Assembly: GCA_004297165.1 (NCBI GenBank)
Contig: SCUJ01000011.1
Location: forward strand, 128,095-192,094
Direction: 5' to 3'
Length of the DNA stretch: 64,000 bases
Source: Gammaproteobacteria bacterium
GTDB taxonomy: Bacteria > Pseudomonadota > Gammaproteobacteria > Eutrophobiales > Eutrophobiaceae
The notes beneath the pieces were generated by a model. It was not told the DNA's origin. It made no database searches and was given only the letters and a program-made list of their open reading frames with translations. This document shows positions 37,787 through 56,223 of the stretch, one piece after another; the stretch's first letter is position 1; every line of letters begins with the position of its first letter. Made by a program: the position numbers and the translations under genes.

Positions 37787-37863
37787 TGGTGGGCCGTGCA
37801 GGATTCGAACCTGCGACCAACGGATTAAAAATCCGCTGCTCTACCGACTGAGCTAACGGCCCG
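37787..37863 (-). tRNA. tRNA-Lys (anticodon UUU)
   Basis: Minus strand reads CGGGCCGTTAGCTCAGTCGGTAGAGCAGCGGATTTTTAATCCGTTGGTCGCAGGTTCGAATCCTGCACGGCCCACCA; cloverleaf with anticodon loop TTTTTAA; near-identical to E. coli tRNA-Lys. Confidence 0.9.
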
Positions 37864-42698: not shown

Positions 42699-43324
42699 CC
42701 GAGGCCGTCATCCTGGTCCACGGCCTGTGGATGAACGGCCTCGATATGACCCTGCTGCGCCGCCGGATCGCCGCGGCCGGTTACATAACGCATCAGTTCC
42801 GCTATCCGACCGTACGCCAGAGCCCCGCCGAGAATGCGCATGACCTCGCGACCTTCGCCAGTCGCCTGCCGCACCAGGTAGTGCACTTCATCGGCCACAG
42901 CCTGGGCGGCCTGGTATTGCGGCATCTCTTTCATGCCCATCCCGATCAACGGCCCGGCCGGGTCGTCACCCTGGGTACGCCGCATCAGCCAAGCAGCGCG
43001 GCTCGTGGCTTCCTGCGACTGTCGCCGGGACGCAGGCTGCTCGGACGGAGCCTGGAAGCGGGCCTGCTGGGCGAGGCCCCCGGCTGGAACGGCGGCCGTG
43101 ATCTCGGCAGCATCGCCGGGACCCTGGGGTTGGGACCTGTCTGGTTCATCCCGGACATCCCGCGTCCTTGCGACGGCACGGTCGCGGTCAACGAAACCCT
43201 GATCGAGGGCATGCGGGATCACGTCACCGTCCCGGCCACACACATGGGTCTCCTCATCTCGCGGCGCGCGGCGGAACAATGCCTGCATTTTCTCCAATAT
43301 GGCCGGTTTGTTTCGCAACGCTAG
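42695..43324 (+). CDS. Alpha/beta-fold hydrolase (esterase/lipase-like)
   Basis: HGLWMNG oxyanion region and GHSLGG nucleophile elbow; GTG start overlaps the nadA stop. Confidence 0.7.
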
Positions 43325-43548
43325 CGAGGCTTGTTTTTATAAGGTCAATATACCGTGGTTGATCTATTCAACCGTACCTAACACCGGTAAGATCCATGCC
43401 CACGGTGAGGGCATCAAAGGAACGCCATGAACCACGATAACTGCCTATACAAGCCTCTTCCATGCCTTTCACCTCGGAAGGCTCCATACTTTCAGGCGGC
43501 TCTTTCTTTGGACACGTTTTGGATTCTGACTGTCCACGAGCATGCTCA

Positions 43549-45537
43549 ATGCCTGACCACAACTACTTCTCTAATTTAATCTGGCAGATCGCCGATCTGC
43601 TGCGTGGCCCTTATCGGCCGCCGCAGTACGAGCGCGTCATGCTACCGATGACGGTGCTGCGCCGGTTCGACTGCGTGCTCTCGCCCACCAAGGCCAAGGT
43701 CCTGGCCGAGCACGAAAGGCGCAAGGGGGGTAAGCTCGAAGGCGACGCCCTCGATACCAAGCTCAACCAGGCATCCGGCCAGCGCTTCCACAATCACTCG
43801 CCCCTCGACTTCGAGAAACTGAAGGGGGATCCCGACAACATCGAGAAACACCTGGTCAGCTACATCAAGGGTTTCTCGAAGAACGTCCGCGACATCTTCG
43901 ACTTCTTCGAATTCGAGGCCGAGATCGAGCGGATGCGCGAGGCGAACATCCTCTACCTCGTCATCTCCAAGTTCCGCGACGTGGACCTGCACCCGAACGC
44001 GGTGCCTAATGAGCAGATGGGCCTCATCTTCGAGAACCTCATCCGGCGCTTCAACGAACTGGCCAACGAGACCGCGGGCGATCACTTCACGCCGCGCGAG
44101 GTCATCCGGCTGATGGTGAACATCCTGTTCATCCATGACGACAAGCTTCTCGCCACGCCCGGAACGGTGCGCAAGCTGCTCGACCCGGCCTGCGGCACCG
44201 GCGGCATGCTGGCCGAGGCCCAGAACTACCTGCGCGAGCATCACGGCGCGGCCAAGCTCTACGTTTACGGGCAGGACTACAACAAGCGCGCCTTCGCCAC
44301 CGCGGCGTCCGACATGCTGATGAAACAGGTGGACCACAACGGCGGCGGCAACAACGTCCGCTTCGGCGACAGCTTCACCGAGGATCAGTTCGCGGGCGAG
44401 ACCTATGACTACTTCCTGACCAACCCACCCTTCGGTGTGGACTGGAAGAAACAGCAGAAGGAGATCCAGCAGGAGCGCGACAAGCGCGGCTTCGACGGCC
44501 GTTTTGGCGCCGGGCTGCCGCGCGTGAATGACGGTTCGCTGCTTTTCCTGCAACACATGGTCGACAAGTTCGAGCCTGTGCGCCCGGCGGAGCACAAACA
44601 CGGATCGCGCCTCGCCATCGTCTTCAGCGGATCACCGCTCTTCACCGGCGGCGCGGGCTCGGGTGAGAGCGACATCCGCAAGTGGATCATCGAGAACGAC
44701 TGGCTCGAAGCCATCATCGCCCTGCCGGAGCAGATGTTCTACAACACGGGCATCGGCACCTACGTCTGGATCGTCACCAACCGCAAGGAGAAGCGGCGCA
44801 AGGGCAGGATTCAGCTCCTCGATGCGCGCGCCGTGTGGACCGCGGGTGGCAGCGAGGACAACAAGCGCAGCCTCGGCGACAAGCGCCGGCACATCACCAA
44901 CAGCCAGATCGCCGAGATCGTCAAGCTCTACGGCCGGCAGACCGACGGCGAGACCTCCAGGACCTTCGACAACGCCGACTTCGGCTACACCCGCGTGACC
45001 GTCGAGCGGCCCCTGCGCCTGCGCTACCAGATGACCCTGGAAGACAAGTCTCGTTTTCTTGACGCGTGCCCGCACCTGCTCGACGACGTGCAGGCCATCG
45101 ACAAGGTGTTAGGTCGAGAGCCGAGGTTGGATTGGGATGCAGTCGAGAGCGACATTCAAGATGTTCTCGCAGAGAAAGGGAGCCGATGGAAGGCTTCGGA
45201 ATGGAAGCTTTTCCGGAATGTGTTCACGAAAAAAAACTCCGACGGCAAGCCAATACGGGAAGGTTGGGTGCAGAGCCCTGGAGAGCCTGATCCCGACCTG
45301 CGCGATTTCGAGAACGTGCCGCTCAAGGACGACATCGACGCCTACTTCGAACGCGAGGTGCGCCCACACGTGCCCGACGCCTGGATGGATCGAGCCAAGG
45401 ACAAGGTCGGCTACGAGATTAACTTCAACCGCCACTTCTACAAGTACACGCCGCCGCGTCCCTTGGAGATAATCGACGCGGAGCTCAAGCAGGCGGAAGA
45501 GGCGATCATGCGGTTGCTCCGGGAGGTGACGGAGTGA
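43549..45537 (+). CDS. hsdM: Type I restriction-modification system methyltransferase subunit HsdM
   Basis: N-terminal HsdM_N-type sequence (IWQIADLLRGPYRPPQYERVMLPMTVLRRFDCVL), AdoMet motif LDPACGTGGML, catalytic motif LTNPPFG; start chosen at MPDHNYF. Confidence 0.9.
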   Translation: MPDHNYFSNLIWQIADLLRGPYRPPQYERVMLPMTVLRRFDCVLSPTKAKVLAEHERRKGGKLEGDALDTKLNQASGQRFHNHSPLDFEKLKGDPDNIEKHLVSYIKGFSKNVRDIFDFFEFEAEIERMREANILYLVISKFRDVDLHPNAVPNEQMGLIFENLIRRFNELANETAGDHFTPREVIRLMVNILFIHDDKLLATPGTVRKLLDPACGTGGMLAEAQNYLREHHGAAKLYVYGQDYNKRAFATAASDMLMKQVDHNGGGNNVRFGDSFTEDQFAGETYDYFLTNPPFGVDWKKQQKEIQQERDKRGFDGRFGAGLPRVNDGSLLFLQHMVDKFEPVRPAEHKHGSRLAIVFSGSPLFTGGAGSGESDIRKWIIENDWLEAIIALPEQMFYNTGIGTYVWIVTNRKEKRRKGRIQLLDARAVWTAGGSEDNKRSLGDKRRHITNSQIAEIVKLYGRQTDGETSRTFDNADFGYTRVTVERPLRLRYQMTLEDKSRFLDACPHLLDDVQAIDKVLGREPRLDWDAVESDIQDVLAEKGSRWKASEWKLFRNVFTKKNSDGKPIREGWVQSPGEPDPDLRDFENVPLKDDIDAYFEREVRPHVPDAWMDRAKDKVGYEINFNRHFYKYTPPRPLEIIDAELKQAEEAIMRLLREVTE

Positions 45538-46811
45538 CCGTCGTCGAACAACGTCTGAAGTACTGCGTCCGGCGCCCGATCATAAATGGGGTCGGAGCGG
45601 CCGCTGAGCACGATGACCCCTCGTGGCCGCGATATGTGCGAATCACTGATATTGCTGGCCCCAGGAAACTGCGAGACGACACATTCATGTCGCTTCCCCC
45701 CGAGCAGGCAGCTGAGGCACCATTCAACGTCGGGGACATTCTTGCAGCGGCGGTCGGCGCCACTTTCGGCAAGACCTATCTTCACGCCAGTGACATAGGG
45801 CCGGCTGCGTTCGCGGGCTATCTGGTGCGAATCTCACCCGGTGCAGATTTCGAACCTCGCTTTGTGGCGTATTGGTCAGAAAGCCACCACTACTGGGATC
45901 AAGTCAATACAAGTGTTGTGCAATCGACGATCCAGAACTTCTCTGCGGCCAAGTATGCCGAGCTTCGACTACCAGCCCCGCCGCTTGAGACGCAATGCAT
46001 AATCGCCAACTACCTTGACCGAGAGACTGCGCGGCTGGATGCACTGGTGGCGGCGAAGGAGCGGGTGCTCGGGCTGTTGGCCGAGAAGCGCCGGGCAGTC
46101 ATCACACGCGCCGTCACCCGCGGCCTCGACCCCCGCGCGCGCCTCCGCGACTCTGGCATTCCCTGGCTCGGGGAGATTCCGGCGCATTGGGAAGCATGGA
46201 AGCTTGGGCACGTTGCATTTGTAGGGAATGGATCAACCCCGAACAGAGACAATCCAGAGTATTGGACGGAAGGGGTGATCCCTTGGCTCAACAGTTCAGT
46301 GGTCAATCAGGATGAAGTGACTGCATCCGACCAGTTTGTCACTCCAACAGCGTTCCGCGAATGTCATCTACCTTTGGTCAAGCCGGGAAGCGTTCTTATC
46401 GGAATAACCGGACAAGGGAAGACCCGAGGGAGCGCGGTGGTTCTGTCGTTCGAGGCAACGATAAATCAGCACCTCGCCTTTATCACGCCGAATGCCAATC
46501 TGCTAAATGCATGGTTCCTACGTTGGGCTCTGTTCGCTGCTTACGAGTTTCTCAGAAGCATCAGTGACGATGCAGGCGGAACCAAGGGTGCTCTTACCTG
46601 TGAGGCCGTCGCAGCACTCTACGTGCCTCTACCGCCACTCAACGACCAGAGAGCAATCGTCGCTCATGTTTCCTCGGAGGCGAGCAAGCTTGATGCTTTG
46701 AGGGTGGCGACCGAGCGCACGATTGCCTTGATCAAAGAGCGCCGCGCCGCGCTCATCGCTGCGGCAGTGACAGGCAGACATGCTCCTGACTTTGCGAGGG
46801 GATCGGCATGA
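45534..46811 (+). CDS. hsdS: Type I restriction-modification system specificity subunit HsdS
   Basis: Two target-recognition domains separated by the conserved central helix (LDALVAAKERVLGLLAEKRRAVITRAVTRGLDP) and a C-terminal repeat (LDALRVATERTIALIKERRAALIAAAVTG); GTG start overlaps the hsdM stop. Confidence 0.85.
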   Translation: MTVVEQRLKYCVRRPIINGVGAAAEHDDPSWPRYVRITDIAGPRKLRDDTFMSLPPEQAAEAPFNVGDILAAAVGATFGKTYLHASDIGPAAFAGYLVRISPGADFEPRFVAYWSESHHYWDQVNTSVVQSTIQNFSAAKYAELRLPAPPLETQCIIANYLDRETARLDALVAAKERVLGLLAEKRRAVITRAVTRGLDPRARLRDSGIPWLGEIPAHWEAWKLGHVAFVGNGSTPNRDNPEYWTEGVIPWLNSSVVNQDEVTASDQFVTPTAFRECHLPLVKPGSVLIGITGQGKTRGSAVVLSFEATINQHLAFITPNANLLNAWFLRWALFAAYEFLRSISDDAGGTKGALTCEAVAALYVPLPPLNDQRAIVAHVSSEASKLDALRVATERTIALIKERRAALIAAAVTGRHAPDFARGSA

Positions 46812-47713
46812 GGCATACAAGCCCATTACGCTATCCTGGCGGTAAGGCTGAACTAACGGGGTTCCTTACTGACGTGATCGATCTGAACGATTTGCGCGGA
46901 TGCCCTTACTACGAACCTTACGCTGGTGGTGCCGGGGCGGCGATAGGTCTTCTTAAGCACGGCGTTGTATCAGAGATATTTCTCAATGATGCAGACAGGC
47001 GAGTCTACGCCTTTTGGCGCGCGATACTCCAAAATAGCGAGCGTTTTGTGGAGCGCATTCACACCGTTCCTTTAAGTATTAAAGAATGGTATCGTCAACA
47101 CAAGATCTGCGCCCGACCGAGGTCGCACGCCCAGTTTGATCTGGGATTTTCCGCCTTCTACATGAATCGTTGCAACCGCTCAGGGGTTTTGAGCGGTGCA
47201 GGTCCAATCGGCGGCTACGAACAATCGGGTAAATGGCGAATGGATGTGCGCTTCAACCGCGAAACGCTTGCGAGACGCATCCTGAATCTATCTCGAATGA
47301 AGACTCAGATTCATGTGACCTGCGAGGATGCGATTGTCTTCCTTAAGAAGCAATTGCCGCGGGGGCGGGGTCGCAACCGAGTCTTTGTCTACCTTGATCC
47401 GCCGTATGTCAACAATGGCCAGCGTCTTTACCTGAATGCTTATCAACAAGATGACCACGCCAAGTTGTCGCGGTATCTAGACGATCAGACTGTGCTACCG
47501 TGGATTATGTCTTACGATGACAGTAGCTTGGTGCGGGAATTATATGTCAAGCAACAGATTGCACTCATGCCGATTCGCTATACTCTTCAAGAGAAACGTT
47601 CAGCACACGAACTTATCATTTCTCCTTGCCACGTTGCCATACCTAATGCCTGTCGGATTTATGGTCGGGAAAATCTGCTTCAAGTCTCTCATCACCAGGG
47701 AGGAGCATCATGA
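46808..47713 (+). CDS. Dam-family (D12 class) N6-adenine DNA methyltransferase, orphan, embedded in the Type I R-M operon
   Basis: Motifs align with E. coli Dam: RYPGGK (WAGGK), EPYAGGAG (EPFVGAGS), FYMNRCNRSG (LYLNRYGYNG), VYLDPPY (VYCDPPY); ATGA overlap with the hsdS stop. Confidence 0.85.
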   Translation: MRHTSPLRYPGGKAELTGFLTDVIDLNDLRGCPYYEPYAGGAGAAIGLLKHGVVSEIFLNDADRRVYAFWRAILQNSERFVERIHTVPLSIKEWYRQHKICARPRSHAQFDLGFSAFYMNRCNRSGVLSGAGPIGGYEQSGKWRMDVRFNRETLARRILNLSRMKTQIHVTCEDAIVFLKKQLPRGRGRNRVFVYLDPPYVNNGQRLYLNAYQQDDHAKLSRYLDDQTVLPWIMSYDDSSLVRELYVKQQIALMPIRYTLQEKRSAHELIISPCHVAIPNACRIYGRENLLQVSHHQGGAS

Positions 47714-48813
47714 TTACGAAAACAAATACCGAATCCATTCCTGTGAAAGAACTTCACTTTGACCGATTGAATCCTAGGCTTGCCGAATACGGAGTACGGC
47801 CAGAGACGACGGATAAAGAGATCCAGGAGATCCTTTGGGATGCCATGGATGTGCGCGAGTTGGTCCAGTCGATCGCTGCTAGCGGATTTTTCCGACATGA
47901 ACCGATTATTGTAGCCAAAGAGAAAAACAAGAACATCGTCATCGAAGGTAACCGGCGTCTCGCAGCGGTAAAAGTACTTCTCGATACTCAAGTCGCCAAG
48001 AAGAACGGGTGGGAAATTCCGACACTATCCAAGGATGAACGCAATGGTCTGGAGACTCTGCCCGTCATTTTTTCTGACCGTAAGGAATCATGGCGTTACT
48101 TAGGTTTTAAACACGTCAACGGTCCCGCAAAGTGGAGTAGCTACGCTAAGGCGAAGTACATAGCCGATATTCATCGTGACCACAAAATTTCTTTATCCGA
48201 TATCGCAAATCAGATCGGCGATCAGCATCGGACGGTACAACGTCTATATCGTGGACTGATGGTGATCGAGCAGGCCGAACGCATGAAGGTTTATGATCGG
48301 GAGGACAGATTTCGGCAACGACTCGCCTTCTCTCACCTCTACACCGGTCTGGATTACGATGGCGTCAGTTCTTTTATCAGCTTAAAAGCTGAAGACGAGG
48401 AGACAAAGAATCCTGTTCCCAAGGAAAAGGTGAAGGAATTGGGCGAGCTCTGCGTGTGGCTTTACGGCAGCAAGAAGGACAATCGCCCACCAGTCGTCGA
48501 ATCACAAAACCCCGACCTCAGGCGTCTCAATGCCGTCCTGAACAACCGAGAGGCGATAGCCGCACTGCGGGCCGGGTCAGAGCTTGTCAAGGCGTTCGAG
48601 ATCAGCAGACCCCCTACAGCTGTCTTCGAGGAGGCACTTCTGGCCGCCAAACGCGAACTCACTACCGCAAGGGCACACCTGACGACAGGATATGACAAGT
48701 CGGAAGCGCTACTGCGCGTTGTCGGCACCATCGCCGAGATGGCTGACGACATCTACAAAGAGATGGAACGAAAGAGAAACCCCGAGAAAACAAAGCGACT
48801 TACGGAGAAGTAA
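47710..48813 (+). CDS. ParB/Srx-superfamily protein (DndB/DGQHR-like or DUF262-like N-domain)
   Basis: N-terminal region has IIVAKEKNKNIVIEGNRRLAAVKVL, a ParB-like GxxR arginine motif (compare DGQHR/DGQQR), and a second motif IGDQHRTVQRLYRG; ATGA overlap with the Dam-like gene; lower GC. Confidence 0.55.
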   Translation: MITKTNTESIPVKELHFDRLNPRLAEYGVRPETTDKEIQEILWDAMDVRELVQSIAASGFFRHEPIIVAKEKNKNIVIEGNRRLAAVKVLLDTQVAKKNGWEIPTLSKDERNGLETLPVIFSDRKESWRYLGFKHVNGPAKWSSYAKAKYIADIHRDHKISLSDIANQIGDQHRTVQRLYRGLMVIEQAERMKVYDREDRFRQRLAFSHLYTGLDYDGVSSFISLKAEDEETKNPVPKEKVKELGELCVWLYGSKKDNRPPVVESQNPDLRRLNAVLNNREAIAALRAGSELVKAFEISRPPTAVFEEALLAAKRELTTARAHLTTGYDKSEALLRVVGTIAEMADDIYKEMERKRNPEKTKRLTEK

Positions 48814-48814
48814 T

Positions 48815-49747
48815 GTGTTCAAGCTGCCCGACTTGCCGTCATCGCAGGCAGAGGTCCACGAACTCGCTGATTTTGTAGAGTTATTGTGCTGGGTCCGTGG
48901 ATCAACATCGAAGCGTGAAGTTGTGGCTTATCTTGGGCGAGTGGATGATAACGATAACAATATTGGTTGTGACGACAATGAAGACGGGAACTCCGATTTT
49001 CTGGATGAGGTAATGAACGAGATCGAACGGCGTGTGTTCGCGTGCGGTGTCGGTTATCCGTTCCAACTCGATCTCGAAGGAACCGTCCTTAGATACAACA
49101 TGAACGATGACGGTGAAAGATCAATAATCTACCTCTACCTCTTGTTAAGTACGCGACTTAATATGACGAAAAACCGAGTTCACGAAAGAATTGATGGCAC
49201 ATCGTTGTTTGAGGAAGTCTGTGCCCATGTGTTAAAAAACTATTTGGGTAAAACAAGGGCGAAAGCACTGGTATTCGGTACTGCGGTAACCGAGTCATTT
49301 CAGGATAAGATCAAGGCGCTGTGCGAACAGTTGTGTGAAGGATCAGGTTACAAAAACCCAGATGTGATGCCTTCGGTTGATCGCGATGGTAAGTTAGATG
49401 TAGTTGCATGGGTCCCTTTTACGGACCGTCGTGCAGGTCAACTGATTGTTTTTTCGCAGTGTAAAACAGGAACTAATTGGAAAGATCATGTGGCACAACT
49501 GAACCCCGGTGCTTTCGTTCAGAAATGGATCGATGGCACTATCGCCGTTACTCCCGTGCGTTCATTTTGCGTTACGGAAGCTTGTGATCAATCGCGTTGG
49601 AATAGCGCCTGCATTGATGCAGGCATTCTGCTTGACCGGTGCCGACTGGTTGACTTCTGCGATAACATCGACCCGACACTGCTAAGTAATGTGAATCGCT
49701 GGACAACCGCGGCCAAGAGCCATGTGGTGAGTAAAATGGCATGGTAG
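48815..49747 (+). CDS. Hypothetical protein with a possible PD-(D/E)xK-like nuclease motif
   Basis: GTG start 1 nt after the upstream TAA; C-terminal half has DRDGKLDVVAWVPF...GQLIVFSQCKTG (D...QxK pattern); no family recognised with certainty; lower GC. Confidence 0.4.
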   Translation: MFKLPDLPSSQAEVHELADFVELLCWVRGSTSKREVVAYLGRVDDNDNNIGCDDNEDGNSDFLDEVMNEIERRVFACGVGYPFQLDLEGTVLRYNMNDDGERSIIYLYLLLSTRLNMTKNRVHERIDGTSLFEEVCAHVLKNYLGKTRAKALVFGTAVTESFQDKIKALCEQLCEGSGYKNPDVMPSVDRDGKLDVVAWVPFTDRRAGQLIVFSQCKTGTNWKDHVAQLNPGAFVQKWIDGTIAVTPVRSFCVTEACDQSRWNSACIDAGILLDRCRLVDFCDNIDPTLLSNVNRWTTAAKSHVVSKMAW

Positions 49748-49963
49748 CGAGCATTCAAAAAGTGGATTTCAAAACGGTCATAAAAATTTGCCTGCTCACG
49801 AAAAATCATAGTTTCCGTGAATCGTGGATGTTTCACGACAACGAGTGGGGCCAAAGATGGAGGCACTGTGAGTAGCAGTGAGAGTAGACGCTCAATGGCC
49901 CGCACAAATGAAGCAACACTGAATGTTTAGTGGTGGCATGCTGGAGCAGATTGACATATTGGA

Positions 49964-50320
49964 GTGTGCGGTGTGACCCGCGTCGCTGTTCGCCCAGGGA
50001 TGCTGCGCTGGGCCTGCGAGCGCGCTCGTCAGCTCAGCGGAGGAGCGACTGCTGTGACACAATTGACTGACGATACACTCAGAGACGAGCTGATCCCCTA
50101 CCGCACCGCCGATGACGCCGTGCGCGTCGAGGCGCGCTACGAGTCCAAGACCTTCTGGCTCGACCAGCGATGCATAGCCGAGCTGTTCGGCGTCGACGTC
50201 CGCACCGTCAGCTACCACCTGAAGGAAGTCTACGCCTCGGAGGAGCTGACCCCGGAGACAACTCTCCAACAAATTTGGAGAGTTCAGCACGAGGCAGCCA
50301 TCATCCCGGAGGGCACATGA
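49964..50320 (+). CDS. RhuM-family N-terminal domain protein (truncated relative to full-length RhuM)
   Basis: ELIPYRTADDAVRVEARYESKTFWLDQRCIAELFGVDVRTVSYHLKEVYASEELTPETTLQQIWRVQHE matches the conserved RhuM N-terminus, but the protein ends after about 118 aa; its stop overlaps the next start (ATGA). Confidence 0.5.
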   Translation: MCGVTRVAVRPGMLRWACERARQLSGGATAVTQLTDDTLRDELIPYRTADDAVRVEARYESKTFWLDQRCIAELFGVDVRTVSYHLKEVYASEELTPETTLQQIWRVQHEAAIIPEGT

Positions 50321-51837
50321 CCACCCAGCCCCTCCTTGCCGACCTCCTCCGTTCCGGCGAGTGGACCGGCGCCGAATTCAAGGCCGCACGTCAGGGACTC
50401 CCGAAGTCGGCGTTTGAGACCGTCTCGGCTTTTGCCAACACCCGCGGCGGCTGTCTGGTCCTCGGCGTTACGCAGGACGGTGAGCAGTTCGAGGTGAGCG
50501 GCGTCGGCGAACCCGACAAGGTTCAGAACGACTTCCTCTCGGTGCTGCACGCCGACGGGAAGGTCAGCCACGATGTGGACATCACCGAACACCGCTACCA
50601 GCACGACGGCAAGGTCGCGCTCGCGTTCCGCATCGCCGAGAACCCGCGCACGCGCAAGCCCGTCTACCTCGACGGCGACATCCGCCGAACCTTTCTGCGC
50701 AAGGGCGGTGGCGACTACCGCGCTCAGCCGCACGAGATCGAGCGGATGTTGCGCGACCAGTCGGCGGATCGCTGGGACGGCCAGCCGTTCACGCGCGTCT
50801 CGCTCGACGAGGTGTTCCACTCGGCGAGCCTCACCTGGTACCGCGACCGCTTCCACGCCACGAACCCCGGCTTCGATGTCGAGCAGCCGCACCACGAGTT
50901 CCTCCACGACTGGGGCTACTTGGTGAAGGAAAGCGGCGCGTTCCTGCCGACGGGCGCGAGCGTTGCGCTGTTCGGCTCATTGCGCGGTGTTCGCAACCTG
51001 CTGCCGCGCCCGATCCTCGACGTGCAGTTCCTTGGCTACGGCAGTCACGACGAGATGCCCGAGACGCGCTGGATCGATCGCCTCGTGAGCGAAGTGAACA
51101 TCGTCGAAACCTGGCAGCAACTCCTCGCCAAGTACCTCTTCTTTATGCCCAAGCCGTTCCGCGACATCGACTCGGAAACGCTCGAGCGGCGCGACGCGCC
51201 CGCGGGTTTCCGTGTCTTCCGCGAGGCCGCGATGAACCTCCTGATTCACCAGGACTACGGCGACCACTCGCGCAAGGCGGTCATCCAGTTTTTCACCGAC
51301 GGCATTCGCTTCTGGAACCCCGGCGACAGCTTCGGCAACGAGACGCGGCTGCTCGAACCCGGAGAGAAGGAGGTGCGCAACCCCGCCATAGCGATGGGGA
51401 TGCGCCGAATCGGCATGTGCGAACAAGCCGGCACGGGCCTCCGGATGATGCGGCGCGAATGGCAGGCGATCGGCTACGCGGCACCGCTTTACGAGAATGA
51501 TCGTGTACATAAGGCATTCGAATCGTTTCTGCCGCAGTTGCGAGAAGTGGCTGTGGAGGTCACCCCCCAAGTCACCCCCCAAGTCACCCCCCAAGTCACC
51601 CCCCAAGTCACCCCCCAAGTCAGGCGGCTGCTGGATGCTATCGAAGGCGAGATGAGACTGGCTGACCTTATGGGCGGGTTGGGGCTGACCGACCGAAAGC
51701 ACTTCCGAACGCAGTACTGGCTGCCGGCATCCGAGCAAGGGCTGATCGAGATGACCCTGCCCGACAAGCCGAACAGCAGCAAGCAACGCTACAGGCTCAC
51801 GGAGTTGGGACATTTCACCAGACAGAGGAACCAATGA
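50317..51837 (+). CDS. AlbA_2/Schlafen-like divergent-AAA domain ATP-binding protein (putative regulator) with an internal VTPQ repeat
   Basis: N-terminus [42 protein letters not shown] is the AlbA_2 putative DNA-binding domain; C-terminal HATPase_c_4-like region ([15 protein letters not shown]); common resident of Type I R-M loci. Confidence 0.7.
51559..51618 (+). repeat. Five perfect tandem copies of the 12-bp unit GTCACCCCCCAA (encoding VTPQ), each containing a C6 tract
   Basis: Read directly from the sequence; in frame within the AlbA_2-like gene; followed by a partial sixth copy (GTCA). Confidence 0.9.
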
Positions 51838-54800
51838 CCGCGCCCCGCCACTCCGAAGCCGCCTTCGAAACCGTCATCGAAGCACACCTCCTCCAGCACG
51901 GCTACGTGACGATCGCGCCTGAGGGTTTCGATCGCGACCGCGCCGTCTTCCCGGAGACGGTGCTTGCCTTTATCCGCGAGACCCAACCCAATGAATGGAA
52001 AAAGCTGGACGCGCTTCATGGCGACAAAACTGGAGAGCAGATCATTGGCGATCTCTGCAAGTGGATGGACGCCAATGGATCACTTGCGACGTTGCGACAC
52101 GGCTTCAAGTGTTATGGGCGCACTCTACACGTCGCGTATTTCAAAGCAGCCCACGAGCTGAATCCGGAGCTTGAAGCGCGGTATGCCGCGAACCGGCTTG
52201 GCATCATCCGTCAGCTTCACTTTTCGCCCCGTTCCGAGAAGTCCCTCGATGTCACATTGAGCCTGAATGGGATTCCCGTCGCCACGCTGGAGCTAAAGAA
52301 TCCGCTTACGGGCCAACGGGTGGAGGATGCGCGCCGGCAGTACAGGCAGGACCGTGACCCGCGCGAACCCATCTTCGAGTTCAAGCGCCGCACGCTGGTG
52401 CATTTCGCGGTGGACACCGAGTCCGTGCTGATGACCACGCGCCTGGCGGGCACGGCGACGCACTTCCTTCCGTTCAACAAGGGCAACGACGGTGGCGCCG
52501 GCAACCCGCCCGACCCGGCGGGTCGCACCTATCGCACGGCGTACCTGTGGGAGGAAGTGTTGCAGCGGGATAGCCTGCTCGATCTGCTTGCGCGCTTCAT
52601 CCACCTGCAGATCGACGAGAAGCGCGATGACCAAGGCCGCAAGGTCAAGACCGAGGCTATGATCTTTCCCCGTTACCACCAGCTTCAGGCGGTGCGGATG
52701 TTGGTAGACGCGGCGCGCGCCGAGGGCGTTGGGCACAACTACCTCGTCGAGCATTCGGCCGGAAGCGGCAAGAGCAATACCATCGGTTGGCTGACGCATC
52801 GGCTCGCGTCCCTGCACGATGCCGCCAACCAGCGCGTATTCGATAGCGTGATCGTGGTGACCGACCGCGTCGTGCTCGACCAGCAGTTGCAGGACACGAT
52901 CTACCAGTTCGAGCACAAGCGTGGCGTCGTACAGCGGATCGACGAGAGCTCGCGGCAGCTTGCGGAAGCGTTGGAGAACGCGGTGCCGGTGATCATCACC
53001 ACGTTGCAGAAATTTCCCTTCGTCTCGCGACAGTTGCTTAAAATTGCAGAGGAGCGCGGCGAGACCGGCACGGGGACACTCGCTACCCGGCGTTGCGCCG
53101 TAATCCTTGATGAGGCCCACAGTTCGCAGGGTGGCGAGACGGCGACCGACCTCAAGGAAGTGCTGGGTGGTGAGGGACTGCGGGACGAAGCGAAGAATCG
53201 CGCGGTCGAGGAAGGCCGCGACGACATGGAGGAGCTGTTCCGCAGCATGGCCAAGCGCGGCAGGCAAGCGAACCTGAGCTTTTTCGCCTTCACTGCCACG
53301 CCCAAGCACAAAACGCTCGCCGTGTTTGGCCGCGATGGGCAGCCGGCACACCGCTACACGATGCGACAGGCGATCGAGGAGGAGTTCATCCTCGACGTTC
53401 TGAAACACTACACGAGCTACGCGACCTATTTCAAATTGCTGAAGGCGTGCGAGGACGATCCAAACGTCGAGCGGAAAAAAGCCGCGCAGGCTCTGGGGCG
53501 CTTCATGAAGTTGCACCCGCACAACATCGCGCAGAAGACCGAGGTGATGGTCGAGCACTTCCAGGCCGTCACTCGGCACAAGATCGGCGGTCGCGCCAAG
53601 GCGATGGTGGTCACTGGTTCACGTCTGGAAGCGGTGCGCTACAAGCAGGGCTTTGATCGCTACATCCAGGAGAAAGGCTACGCCATCAAGTCGCTGGTGG
53701 CGTTCTCTGGAACGGTGCTAGACGACAAGCTGGCCGGTGTCACCTACACCGAACCGGGCATGAACCACGGCATCTCCGAGAAAGAACTGCCCGAGAAATT
53801 CGCAACGCAGGAGTATCAGGTGCTGCTCGTCGCGGAAAAGTACCAAACTGGTTTCGATCAGCCGCTCCTGCACACGATGTTCGTGGACAAGCGCCTCGCG
53901 GGGATCCAGGCCGTGCAGACCTTGTCGAGGCTGAACCGCATTCACCCGCTCAAGGAAGACACGTTCGTCCTCGACTTCGTCAATGACCGCGAGGAGATCC
54001 GCGAAGCCTTCAAGGTCTACTACGAAGGCGCGGAGATGGGTGAGGAAGTCGACCCCGCCCGCATGTATGCGATAAAGGGTGAACTGGACGCCTCGGGGAT
54101 CTATCTCGACGAGGAGGTCGAGCGATTCAGCGCGGTCTATTTCAAGCCGAAGCAGCGGCAAAGCGCGCTGGATCACCAGGCGATGAATGCGGCGCTCGAC
54201 CCGGCGGTCTCGCGTTTCACGGTTCGCCAGAAGGACAACGAGGAAGAGGCGGAACTCTGGCGCGGCAAGATGCAGGCTTTTCTCAACCTCTACGCCTTCC
54301 TGAGCCAGGTGATCCCGTACCAGGACTCTGACCTCGAGCGGTTGTACGTGTTTCTCCGTCACCTTGCGGCGAAGCTGCCTCGTCGCAAGAGCGGCCCGGC
54401 GTACCAGTTCGATGACGAGGTACGGCTCGAATACTACCGCCTGCAGAAGATTAGCGAGGGGTCCATCTCGTTGAAGGACGGTGAAGCCCGGCGTCTCGAT
54501 GGCCCTACTGAGGTTGGCAGTGGCTTGGTTCGCTCGCAACCCGTGCCGCTGTCGCAGCTCATCGACGTAGTGAACGAGCGCTTCGGGACAGATTTCAACC
54601 AGGCTGACCAGTTATTTTTCGACCAGATCGTCGAGGCTGCCATGGCCGACAACAGCCTGCGGCAGGCAGCGGCAGTTAACCCCGGCGATAAATTCGAGCT
54701 GGTATTCAAGAATCTGCTTGAGAAGCTGTTCGTCGAGCGCATGGATCAGAACGAGGAGATCTTTGTCCGATTCATGAACGACGCGCCCTTCCAGAAGATC

Positions 54801-55373
54801 GTGACGGCATGGATGGCGTCGAAGGCGTATCGACGGTTACGAAGCGGTGCCGCTACCGAAGCGGAACAACATGCGATCGTACCTGCGCTGCCGCCACACT
54901 TGCGAATCGTCGAACCAAGACTTGAGGATCGCTTCGTCACCTGTGTGCCACTCGTTCCGCTAAAGGCCGCCGCCGGCGCCTTCGGCGATCCGCAGCACGT
55001 CGAGGAAAATGGCTTCGACTGGGTCGAGGTCAAGACGCGCCACCGGCTTCGTGCCGGAATGTTCGTTGCCCAGGTCGTCGGCAAGTCGATGGAGCCGATG
55101 ATCCCGGATGAGGCGTGGTGTTTGTTTCGAGCGCCGGTGGAGGGTTCACGGCAGGGCAAGACGGTTCTCGTACAACTGCGGGATGATATCGACCCGGAAA
55201 CTGGCGAGCGTTACACAGTCAAGCGGTATGAGAGCGAAAAGGTGAGTCATGACGACTCCTGGAGTCACAAGAGGATCACGCTGAAACCACTCAACCCTGA
55301 CTTCGAACCTATCGTCCTGGCAGACAATGGTTTGGACTCGCAGGTCGTGGCTGAGATGATTGAAGTGCTGTAA
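51834..55373 (+). CDS. hsdR: Type I restriction enzyme R subunit HsdR with a C-terminal LexA/UmuD-like S24 peptidase domain
   Basis: N-terminal PD-(D/E)xK nuclease ([16 protein letters not shown]); helicase motifs ([48 protein letters not shown]); HsdR C-terminal helical domain; then aa about 1037-1179 align with the LexA C-terminal domain ([13 protein letters not shown] / LPLVGRVAAGEPL; VGKSMEPMI / SGMSMKDIG; YTVKRYE / VTVKRLK; [11 protein letters not shown] / PENSEFKPIVV). ATGA overlap with the upstream gene. Confidence 0.9.
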
Positions 55374-55476
55374 GACGATGCTGCTCTCGATCCGTAAAAC
55401 ACGCGGCAGGACAAGGGATTATGCCTGTCTATTTTATGATAAAATGCCCCCATTCGTTTCACTCTGAAGAGAACTC

Positions 55477-56223
55477 ATGGCAGGTCACAGCAAGTGGGCT
55501 AATATCCAGCACCGCAAGGGGAAACAGGACGCCAAGCGCGGCAAGCTGTTCACCAAACTGATCCGGGAAATCACCATCGCCGCACGGCTTGGCGGCGGCG
55601 ACCCGAATTCCAATCCGCGCCTTCGGGCCGCGCTCGAAACCGCGCGCGCCAACAGCATGGCCAAAGACACCATCGACCGCGCGATCAAGCGCGGGGCGGG
55701 CGGCGATGATTCCGCAAATCTGGAAGAAGTCACTTACGAAGGCTATGGCCCCGGCGGCGTCGCGGTGATGGTGGCCTGCACCACCGACAATCGCAACCGC
55801 ACGGTGGCGGATGTCCGGCACGCCTTTACCAAGTGCGGCGGCAATCTGGGGACCGACGGCTCGGTGGCCTATCTATTCAGCAAGGTCGGTCTGCTCAATT
55901 ATCCCACGGGCACGAATGAGGACCGGCTGATGGAACTCGCACTCGAGGCCGGGGCCGAGGATATCGTCACCCATGAGGACGGTTCCATCGAGGTCCTCAC
56001 GACGCCGGAAACCTTCGCCGCCGTGCGGGATCGCCTGGTCGCCGGCAAATTCACCCCGGAGACCGCCGAGATCACCATGCGCGCCTCAACCTCCACCACT
56101 CTTGAGCAGGATTCCGCCGAAAGCATGATCCGCCTGCTCGAGATGCTGGAAGACCTCGATGATGTGCAGAAGGTCTATTCCAACGCCGAGATCCCCGACG
56201 ATGTCCTCGCGGCGCTCGCCTGA
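55477..56223 (+). CDS. yebC: YebC/PmpR-family DNA-binding transcriptional regulator
   Basis: [32 protein letters not shown] is the hallmark N-terminus; conserved upstream of ruvC. Confidence 0.9.

Follow-up and report, generated by a model that had tools for sequence, protein, structure and literature searches.

What does a self-cleaving peptidase domain of the LexA/UmuD kind do at the end of a restriction subunit? The question is raised by a stretch of 64,000 nucleotides from a Gammaproteobacteria bacterium (GenBank assembly GCA_004297165.1, contig SCUJ01000011.1, positions 128,095 to 192,094 of the forward strand), called the window throughout. The last gene of a type I restriction-modification (R-M) operon in this window encodes an HsdR subunit whose C-terminal tail had been read, from the letters and their translation, as an S24 autopeptidase domain with an intact Ala-Gly cleavage site (the original prediction). 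The best explanation of the data gathered here is that the last ~157 residues of this HsdR are a predicted catalytically competent S24 autoprotease, carried by a complete restriction subunit via a short variable linker. As far as the literature searched extends, this is a known self-cleaving switch on a new class of cargo, with a function that we infer, and the architecture is far broader than a single HsdR.

An S24 peptidase domain at the end of a complete HsdR

The protein has the domain content of a type I restriction subunit. Pfam models place HSDR_N at residues 118-206, SWI2_SNF2 at 282-523 (SWI2_SNF2/ResIII together at ~280-523) and a T1R_D3-like domain at 650-708, and both hsdM and hsdS are found in the same operon. 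The PADLOC model REase_I matches at 8e-34, while TIGR00348 (hsdR) gives 190 bits, which is under its subfamily cut-off of 284.55. As originally claimed, the tail follows this complete HsdR in one uninterrupted frame, a statement that now has behind it the open reading frame (ORF), the Pfam domains and the same frame in many independent assemblies (see below). The positions that had been given for the Ala-Gly bond, the Ser and the Lys are exact when read from the DNA (Table 1).

The domain search that the original prediction had called for places PF00717 (Peptidase_S24) on residues 1044-1164, scoring 28.3 bits in the whole protein and 34.2 bits when the tail is searched by itself, both above the gathering score of 23.3. 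A single-sequence phmmer search of the PDB with the tail did not find LexA and returned chance matches to superoxide dismutase alone. Since the tail is too divergent for this type of search, profile, hhalign and fold searches were needed. A module profile was built from a 49-sequence alignment that reaches down to 45% identity with the window's tail; it finds the C-domain of M. tuberculosis LexA at E = 0.003, with GkSM aligned on GDSM. In hhalign the same profile matches E. coli LexA with a probability of 93.8% and E = 1.7e-7, and the quality of this alignment supports the LexA sequence used. VVGKSM is paired with VSGMSM and YTVKRY with VTVKRL, so that Ser1085 corresponds to LexA Ser119 and Lys1130 to LexA Lys156, and the distal strand of the tail is aligned with LexA LLPENSEFKPIVV. 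The cleavage motifs, AAAG in the module and VAAG (A84-G85) in LexA, come to lie one residue out of register in an ungapped block. The block-for-block alignment with LexA that had been described thus holds in hhalign and in the fold, but the likeness exists only at the profile and fold level and is weaker than the paired strings had suggested.

Structure prediction leads to the same family. The AlphaFold2 (AF2) model of residues 1023-1179 has a mean predicted local distance difference test (pLDDT) of 91.5, a predicted template modelling score (pTM) of 0.86 and an all-beta core. In a Foldseek search of the PDB, ranks 1-34 are all LexA C-domain, lambda repressor (CI) or UmuD/UmuD' structures (probability 1.00, E 1e-4 to 0.025), and S26 signal peptidases come after rank 34 with far weaker scores. 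The lead-in to the S24 core is conserved, and because module residues 1-20 are modelled at pLDDT 96-97 we consider it to belong to the fold. Neither NCBIfam nor PADLOC has a model covering the tail. By all of the sequence and fold criteria applied, the tail is predicted to be a member of peptidase family S24, in agreement with the original assignment. A LexA proper was considered and rejected: the N-terminal 1000 residues are HsdR domains, there is no DNA-binding domain, and a search for SOS boxes gave 9 one-mismatch sites in the window versus 12.7 expected, none of them near the operon.

One reading frame in many assemblies

A rival reading of the fusion is that a sequencing or assembly error merged hsdR with a separate lexA/umuD-like gene, and the original prediction had itself raised the possibility of a missed stop or frameshift between two genes. 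The window's HsdR is identical to TAJ91537.1, which lies on a 342-kb contig of a Gammaproteobacteria metagenome-assembled genome. Its cluster at 90% identity has 48 members, the full-length ones being 1179-1184 aa long; some of these carry the names of Ca. Accumulibacter similis (a 5.04-Mb record) and Longimicrobiales. In 68 further related clusters, drawn from NCBI, JGI, ENA and Logan assemblies, the two parts share one frame in the same way. This recurrence answers the question against two genes, and a scan of the window for a promoter-like site ahead of the S24 segment found none.

What a merger has in its favour is that a search with the tail yields many entries of 160-300 aa named "S24 family peptidase" with module sequence, and that HsdR and S24 are adjacent gene calls at some loci. 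As free-standing S24 proteins, however, these entries had to be rejected in each case inspected, since they proved to be artefacts or broken genes. At two loci (L001 and L003) the fused ORF is intact, with 1195 and 1171 aa respectively, but gene calling picked up no more than an internal piece of it. Their public annotation shows a "S24 family peptidase" of 165-168 aa (L001 10001-10507, L003 10001-10498) and leaves the preceding 3 kb without a gene call. At L004/L005 the S24 part is split off by a single-base deletion (gac-tca, where the window has GAC TTC AAC) in an 11x long-read assembly; at L002 the S24 call (245 aa) and an ORF of 1055 aa overlap in different frames; and at L013 an insertion sequence (IS) element breaks the carrier gene. 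For practical purposes we exclude a mis-assembly and a missed stop alike, and we attach next to no probability to a merged pair of genes.

In addition, a Halomonas megaplasmid has the module in a shifted frame after a 686-aa ORF with P-loop helicase-like sequence. The locus is L011 6977-9447 (Halomonas sp. PA16-9, NZ_CP040452.1), and its module is of the GESMNRRIPNG subclass and overlaps the 3' end of the 686-aa ORF; it is the only match in the plasmid collection, and it comes from a named isolate whose record is almost without annotation. Should the frameshift be a sequencing error, this strain is a possible experimental entry point. JGI labels many tail fragments "SOS-response transcriptional repressor LexA" or "phage repressor protein C", and the short S24/LexA entries as a whole look like a systematic mis-annotation.

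Conservation of the cleavage site and the catalytic dyad

Active-site residues were counted over 296 unique complete modules. Ser and Lys are each kept in 295 and occur together in 294, and the cleavage site reads A-G in 279 of the modules, the variants being A-S (7), A-T (4), S-G (2), C-G (2), G-G (1) and T-G (1). The three Ala that precede the Gly are kept in 248, 293 and 290 modules. W1063, G1083, G1104, R1106, T1128, H1145 and L1150 are also near-invariant, and across the 49-sequence alignment the dyad (S63 and K108 of the module) does not vary. The S24 core, the dyad and the canonical scissile dipeptide thus appear to be under strong purifying selection. The Ala-Gly site and the Ser/Lys dyad, aligned with those of LexA, are in place as had been claimed.

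These counts bear on a reading in which the tail does not act as a protease. The C-domains of LexA and CI dimerise, and the tail could be a dimerisation or interaction domain that is never cleaved, or else a decaying passenger, as its optional presence among close relatives (~52 of 120 clusters are without it) and its faster evolution compared with the body would allow. However, neither an interaction domain nor a pseudogene remnant would hold the Ser, the Lys and the Ala-Gly dipeptide at the frequencies above or keep S63 and K108 invariant, and the module models as a confident, complete fold. We therefore regard a non-proteolytic tail as improbable.

A portable module on DNA-targeting defence enzymes

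The idea of the fusion as a one-off did not survive a wider search. An exhaustive HMMER search with the module against 1.84 billion cluster representatives (50% identity clusters) matched 1789 clusters at E <= 1e-3, 1059 at E <= 1e-10 and 158 at E <= 1e-30, and more than half of the closest HsdR clusters (~68 of 120) have the tail. As the fusion is common in environmental genomes, its uniqueness is gone and its significance is widened. Most of the 150 matches listed run to within a few residues of the C-terminus, and 235 of 301 complete modules end no more than 4 residues from the end of the protein.

The carriers are diverse, and among those examined all are nucleic-acid-acting or defence-system proteins. 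Besides the window's HsdR family, they comprise a second HsdR family with a PF11867 C-terminal domain; type IIG/ISP enzymes (Eco57I methylase plus Type_ISP_C); MmeI-like enzymes, with a match at 1.5e-218 to the DISARM DrmMI model for one of them; DEAD/MZB helicases of ~1900 aa that match Druantia DruE models at 1e-137 and 2e-108; Schlafen-group-3 helicases; McrC and a LlaJI-like endonuclease; and proteins with PLD, HNH, RE_endonuc or AlbA_2 domains. The segment that precedes the lead-in varies in length and sequence across carriers and is linker-like. The module is a portable C-terminal add-on on many DNA-targeting defence enzymes.

Regarding its habitat, the module is absent from the GenBank phage records and present on 1 IMG/VR contig, and it occurs once among 72,556 plasmid records. 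A module of phage or prophage nature is therefore not supported by these collections. A single-protein scan of reference genomes returned 4 loci only, with search patterns that were window-specific. The module is found mainly in cellular defence islands of environmental lineages.

Two of the loci show a similar arrangement around another carrier. At L013 (1588-18256) and L002 (6759-14138), a superfamily 1 (SF1) helicase of ~1271 aa (AAA_30/UvrD_C_2) comes after an Eco57I-type methylase that bears Type_ISP_C and the S24 tail. At L013 a 1049-aa PLD plus SNF2 helicase protein lies upstream, and IS elements and a reverse transcriptase gene interrupt the system; at L002 an M78 plus DUF4411 pair adjoins the system.

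Tail-bearing and tail-less relatives

The comparison of HsdRs with and without the tail was made with residues 1-1020 as the query and covers the 120 closest clusters, all of them at least 90% identical. The tail is present in ~68 of these (1172-1194 aa) and absent in ~52 (1006-1051 aa). Most tail-less HsdRs end a few residues past AYRRLRSDD (~residue 1017, ~10-15 residues after the end of the body), and a few stop inside the linker. At L010, the single tail-less context inspected, no S24 gene lies nearby or downstream. L010 and the tail-bearing L001 share the same accessory genes, and their comparison revealed no S24-specific partner gene.

Among the fused relatives, mean identity to the window's protein is 91.9% in the body and 71.5% in the tail, such that the tail diverges ~3x faster than the HsdR body. 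In a sample biased to relatives of the window's tail, HsdR tails are 73.5% identical to type IIG/ISP tails and 73.0% identical among themselves, and the nearest neighbour of an HsdR tail sits on a type IIG/ISP enzyme in 16 of 60 cases. The tails do not sort cleanly by carrier family. An optional tail, its fast divergence and the similarity across carriers would fit either a cassette exchange at the conserved lead-in or a much faster evolution of the tail, and favour neither over the other.

What self-cleavage would do to the enzyme

With a probability of roughly 0.45, we propose that the module is a circuit breaker, in which DNA breaks lead through autocleavage to the loss of HsdR; every step of this chain is put forward from sequence, predicted structure and the behaviour of related proteins. 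Like LexA, lambda CI and UmuD, the S24 domain would cleave the chain it belongs to, at A1047-G1048, when triggered by the RecA filament on single-stranded DNA (RecA*). The cleaved body would then end in ...PLKAAA-COOH, an Ala-Ala C-terminus like those of ssrA and LexA, and might be sent to ClpXP, which is the least certain step. Restriction would thereby be switched off when DNA breaks arise, during damage repair, recombination or self-attack on the chromosome after transfer to a new host. The chain is weak at the trigger and weakest at the direction of the effect. The original prediction had offered RecA*/SOS-triggered autoproteolysis leading to restriction alleviation, or else activation of the enzyme, and its functional side stays at the level of inference.

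As to the trigger, the RecA filament is the universal co-protease of the S24 family and is present in most bacteria, which makes RecA* the most parsimonious candidate and suits a module that crosses phyla and unrelated partners. Its role as co-protease is established for LexA, CI and UmuD (PMC6590174). The trigger is probably not partner-specific, given the unrelated partners, the variable linkers and the lack of a module-specific partner gene in the comparison of L001 with L010.

As to the effect, tail-less HsdRs exist and, if they are active, the loss of the S24 core alone would not inactivate the enzyme. In that case the effect would have to come from an exposed degron, from a lost S24-mediated association or from relieved inhibition. 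For the degron, LexA offers a precedent: the cut at A84-G85 uncovers residues by which LexA is directed to ClpXP and Lon (PMC6590174, citing Neher 2003). Terminal Ala-Ala is critical for C-degrons of ClpXP, and an upstream Leu is favourable (PMC10862746); the predicted new C-terminus of the cleaved HsdR reads L-K-A-A-A. Removal of HsdR is also what type I restriction alleviation consists of in types IA and IB, where ClpXP degrades the subunit after DNA damage and upon entry into a new host (PMC3874165; PMC11109961), whereas for type IC PMC3874165 gives the route as not established.

Several points weigh against this proposal. The conservation of Ala-Ala lends no independent support to a degron, because Ala-Ala before the Gly is required for S24 cleavage in any case, and terminal Ala-Ala is not sufficient for recognition by ClpXP (PMC10862746). 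Some carriers are methyltransferase/specificity subunits and not nucleases (a DrmMI-like enzyme; a methyltransferase-target recognition domain subunit in L013), and their destruction during damage would be less obviously protective. McrC-type enzymes target modified DNA, so that the unmodified sites generated by repair pose no problem for them. In the AF2 model, module residues 21-26 (LKAAAG) are in a short helix, with lower confidence at 21-40. That no SOS box lies near the operon says nothing for or against a switch acting after translation, though an independent link to the SOS response is thereby missing. Finally, the LexA-like S24 protein IrvR autocleaves without RecA (PMC7101444).

This last case also opens the way to another trigger. 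Self-cleavage, whether for alleviation or for activation, could respond to stalled translocation, to pH or other stress, or to a phage protein. The control of EcoKI by ClpXP senses long-lived translocation states rather than SOS (PMC4231737), plasmid-induced restriction alleviation persists in a lexA1 background (PMC11109961), and the fast divergence of the tail (71.5% against 91.9% in the body) could reflect an arms race with a variable ligand. On the other hand, coupling to the state of the enzyme would need a specific interface on each of ten or more unrelated partners, reached across linkers that vary, phages hardly ever have the module, and the cleavage loop and dyad look canonical. A trigger independent of RecA is thus unlikely in our view, and slightly more so than the following reading.

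Cleavage could also act in the opposite direction, as a switch activated by damage or infection: the S24 domain, for example through S24-S24 dimerisation, would keep the enzyme inactive or mis-assembled until RecA* on phage or damaged DNA led to a cut that frees the nuclease. There is precedent in UmuD, an S24 protein activated by cleavage (PMC6590174). The cleaved body would resemble the natural tail-less forms plus ~30 residues, and the product could well be a working enzyme; likewise, the presence of the module on DruE, on Schlafen-type helicases and on other effectors outside R-M fits a licensing signal. Yet a type I system already separates self from non-self by methylation and does not need licensing, and the variable linkers and unrelated partners speak against a specific inhibitory docking surface for each partner. 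Moreover, nucleases switched on while breaks and unmodified repair sites are present are exactly what the known restriction alleviation avoids (PMC3874165). We hold activation by cleavage to be an outside chance, though the strongest of the alternatives.

The proposal of RecA*-triggered removal can be stated for the window's HsdR or for the module as a whole. The general form, a RecA*-sensing S24 circuit breaker on at least ten kinds of DNA-targeting defence protein, in which an Ala-Ala degron destroys the effector, is more tentative and must be called doubtful for now.

Comparison with characterized S24 proteins and restriction alleviation

The module is closest to LexA in its fold (top Foldseek matches) and in having the Ser/Lys dyad and the distal strand at aligned positions, with the Ala-Gly one residue off. 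As in LexA, the cleavage site is at the N-terminal edge of the catalytic core, and a cut there would separate the cargo from the core; the predicted new C-terminus of HsdR would end in Ala-Ala, as does the N-terminal fragment of LexA, a ClpXP substrate (PMC6590174). The differences lie, first of all, in the cargo, which is a ~1000-residue ATP-dependent restriction subunit in HsdR-S24 and a winged-helix DNA-binding domain in LexA. In addition, the relationship is visible at the profile and fold level only, and the module has two insertions, DIDPETGE before the strand with the Lys and a hairpin of ~10 residues with a near-invariant W..H. Its conserved lead-in and its C-terminal end (VVAEMIEVL in the window, VIAEFxEVL as consensus) are specific to the module clade.

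UmuD is likewise an S24 protein that has no DNA-binding domain. Its cleavage, which RecA* stimulates, changes the activity of a complex that processes DNA, and ClpXP controls its stability (PMC6590174). UmuD/UmuD' are among the fold matches, and a C-G cleavage site as in UmuD is present in a few variants of the module. However, what UmuD sheds is an N-terminal arm of 24 residues, which leaves its S24 core as the functional product, whereas HsdR would shed the S24 core from a large enzyme.

The alleviation of EcoKI and EcoAI would be similar in outcome, as HsdR is removed post-translationally when damage, or transfer into a naive host, puts the host chromosome in danger. In EcoKI, translocating complexes are recognised by ClpXP itself, with no part played by an autoprotease, while HsdR-S24 would read the signal by its own domain; plasmid-induced alleviation in EcoKI, moreover, needs no SOS induction (PMC11109961). 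In CI-type repressors and LexA-like regulators (lambda CI, S. aureus CI, IrvR), the S24 core also serves as a self-destruct switch on a cargo, triggered by damage or stress, and for S. aureus CI, ClpX is needed to clear the fragments (PMC10584840). All characterized members of this group are, in contrast, transcription factors.

The unfamiliarity of an S24 domain on a restriction enzyme, noted originally, is borne out by the literature searched, which was incomplete. In it, S24 domains are described only on transcription factors or UmuD-type proteins, and we found no description of an S24 domain on a restriction or defence enzyme, including in the main type I review and a 2026 preprint on the Druantia structure. 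Domain-architecture databases very probably list the combination of S24 and restriction enzyme without comment.

The operon and its surroundings

The coordinates of the fused gene, its parts and the genes of its operon are collected in Table 1.

Table 1. Parts of the fused hsdR gene and genes of its type I operon, with positions in the window
Feature	Position	Strand	Remarks
hsdR-S24	51834..55373	+	single ORF, 1179 codons + stop; no internal stop in translation
HsdR body, residues 1-1004	51834..54845	+	nuclease, superfamily 2 (SF2) motor, C-terminal helical region; Pfam, TIGR00348, PADLOC REase_I
Variable linker, residues 1005-1022	54846..54899	+	length and sequence vary among relatives with bodies >=90% identical; boundaries approximate
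S24 (LexA/UmuD-like) module, residues 1023-1179	54900..55370	+	predicted by Pfam, hhalign, AF2, Foldseek
Codons Ala1047-Gly1048, predicted scissile bond	54972..54977	+	A1047 gcc 54972-54974; G1048 ggc 54975-54977
Codon Ser1085, predicted nucleophile (GKSMEP)	55086..55088	+	tcg
Codon Lys1130, predicted general base (YTVKRY)	55221..55223	+	aag
hsdM, same type I operon	43462..45537	+	Pfam HsdM_N + N6_Mtase
hsdS, same type I operon	45534..46811	+	Pfam Methylase_S, two stretches
Accessory gene directly upstream of hsdR	50170..51837	+	555 aa; AlbA_2/Schlafen + HATPase_c_4 + Fic-like_C (Pfam); 4-base overlap with hsdR

The operon runs in the order hsdM, hsdS, accessory genes and hsdR, which comes last. 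The R-M island (43000-55500) is an insertion in a conserved core-gene neighbourhood, flanked by aspS, a Nudix/NrtR gene, nadA and a hydrolase gene on one side and by yebC-ruvC-ruvA-ruvB-tolQ...tolB on the other. The sole tRNA found is a tRNA-Lys (37787-37862), ~5.6 kb upstream of hsdM. In related operons, the slot of the accessory gene next to hsdR is occupied by an AAA/SMC gene together with one for a 216-aa protein, by Peptidase_M78 plus DUF4411, or by Abi_C, and it looks like a variable accessory-gene slot of these type I operons.

A PD-Lambda-5-like pair is nested between hsdS and the accessory gene, at 46808-48813 and possibly to 49747. It consists of a D12 methyltransferase (46808-47713; 7e-101 against PD-Lambda-5_B) and a ParB-like protein (47710-48813), which matches the N-terminal third only of PD-Lambda-5_A (2e-23). 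The GC content of this segment is 0.46-0.55, compared with ~0.62 in the remaining island, and this drop suggests a later insertion. A 351-aa ORF (48692-49747) overlaps the 3' end of the ParB-like gene by ~120 nt and matches nothing in Pfam, NCBIfam or PADLOC; it could be a gene of its own, or else encode the C-terminal part that a split PD-Lambda-5_A would lack here.

Implications for restriction and phage defence

For those who use sequence databases, the practical consequence is that many entries named "S24 family peptidase" or "LexA" are tails of restriction or defence enzymes. A specialist in R-M or phage defence would be surprised by S24-tailed effectors, and the idea is directly testable. 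How nuclease-based defence avoids self-harm is only partly understood, and the risk peaks after DNA damage, after recombination and on arrival in a new genome. An autoprotease within the effector itself would solve this problem in a simple way that does not depend on the host, and its many unrelated carriers suggest a general design principle. If the proposal is true, it might explain restriction alleviation that is ClpXP-independent or so far unexplained in some lineages, and the module would protect cells quite generally, at the post-translational level, from autoimmunity and make it easier for defence systems to move into naive hosts.

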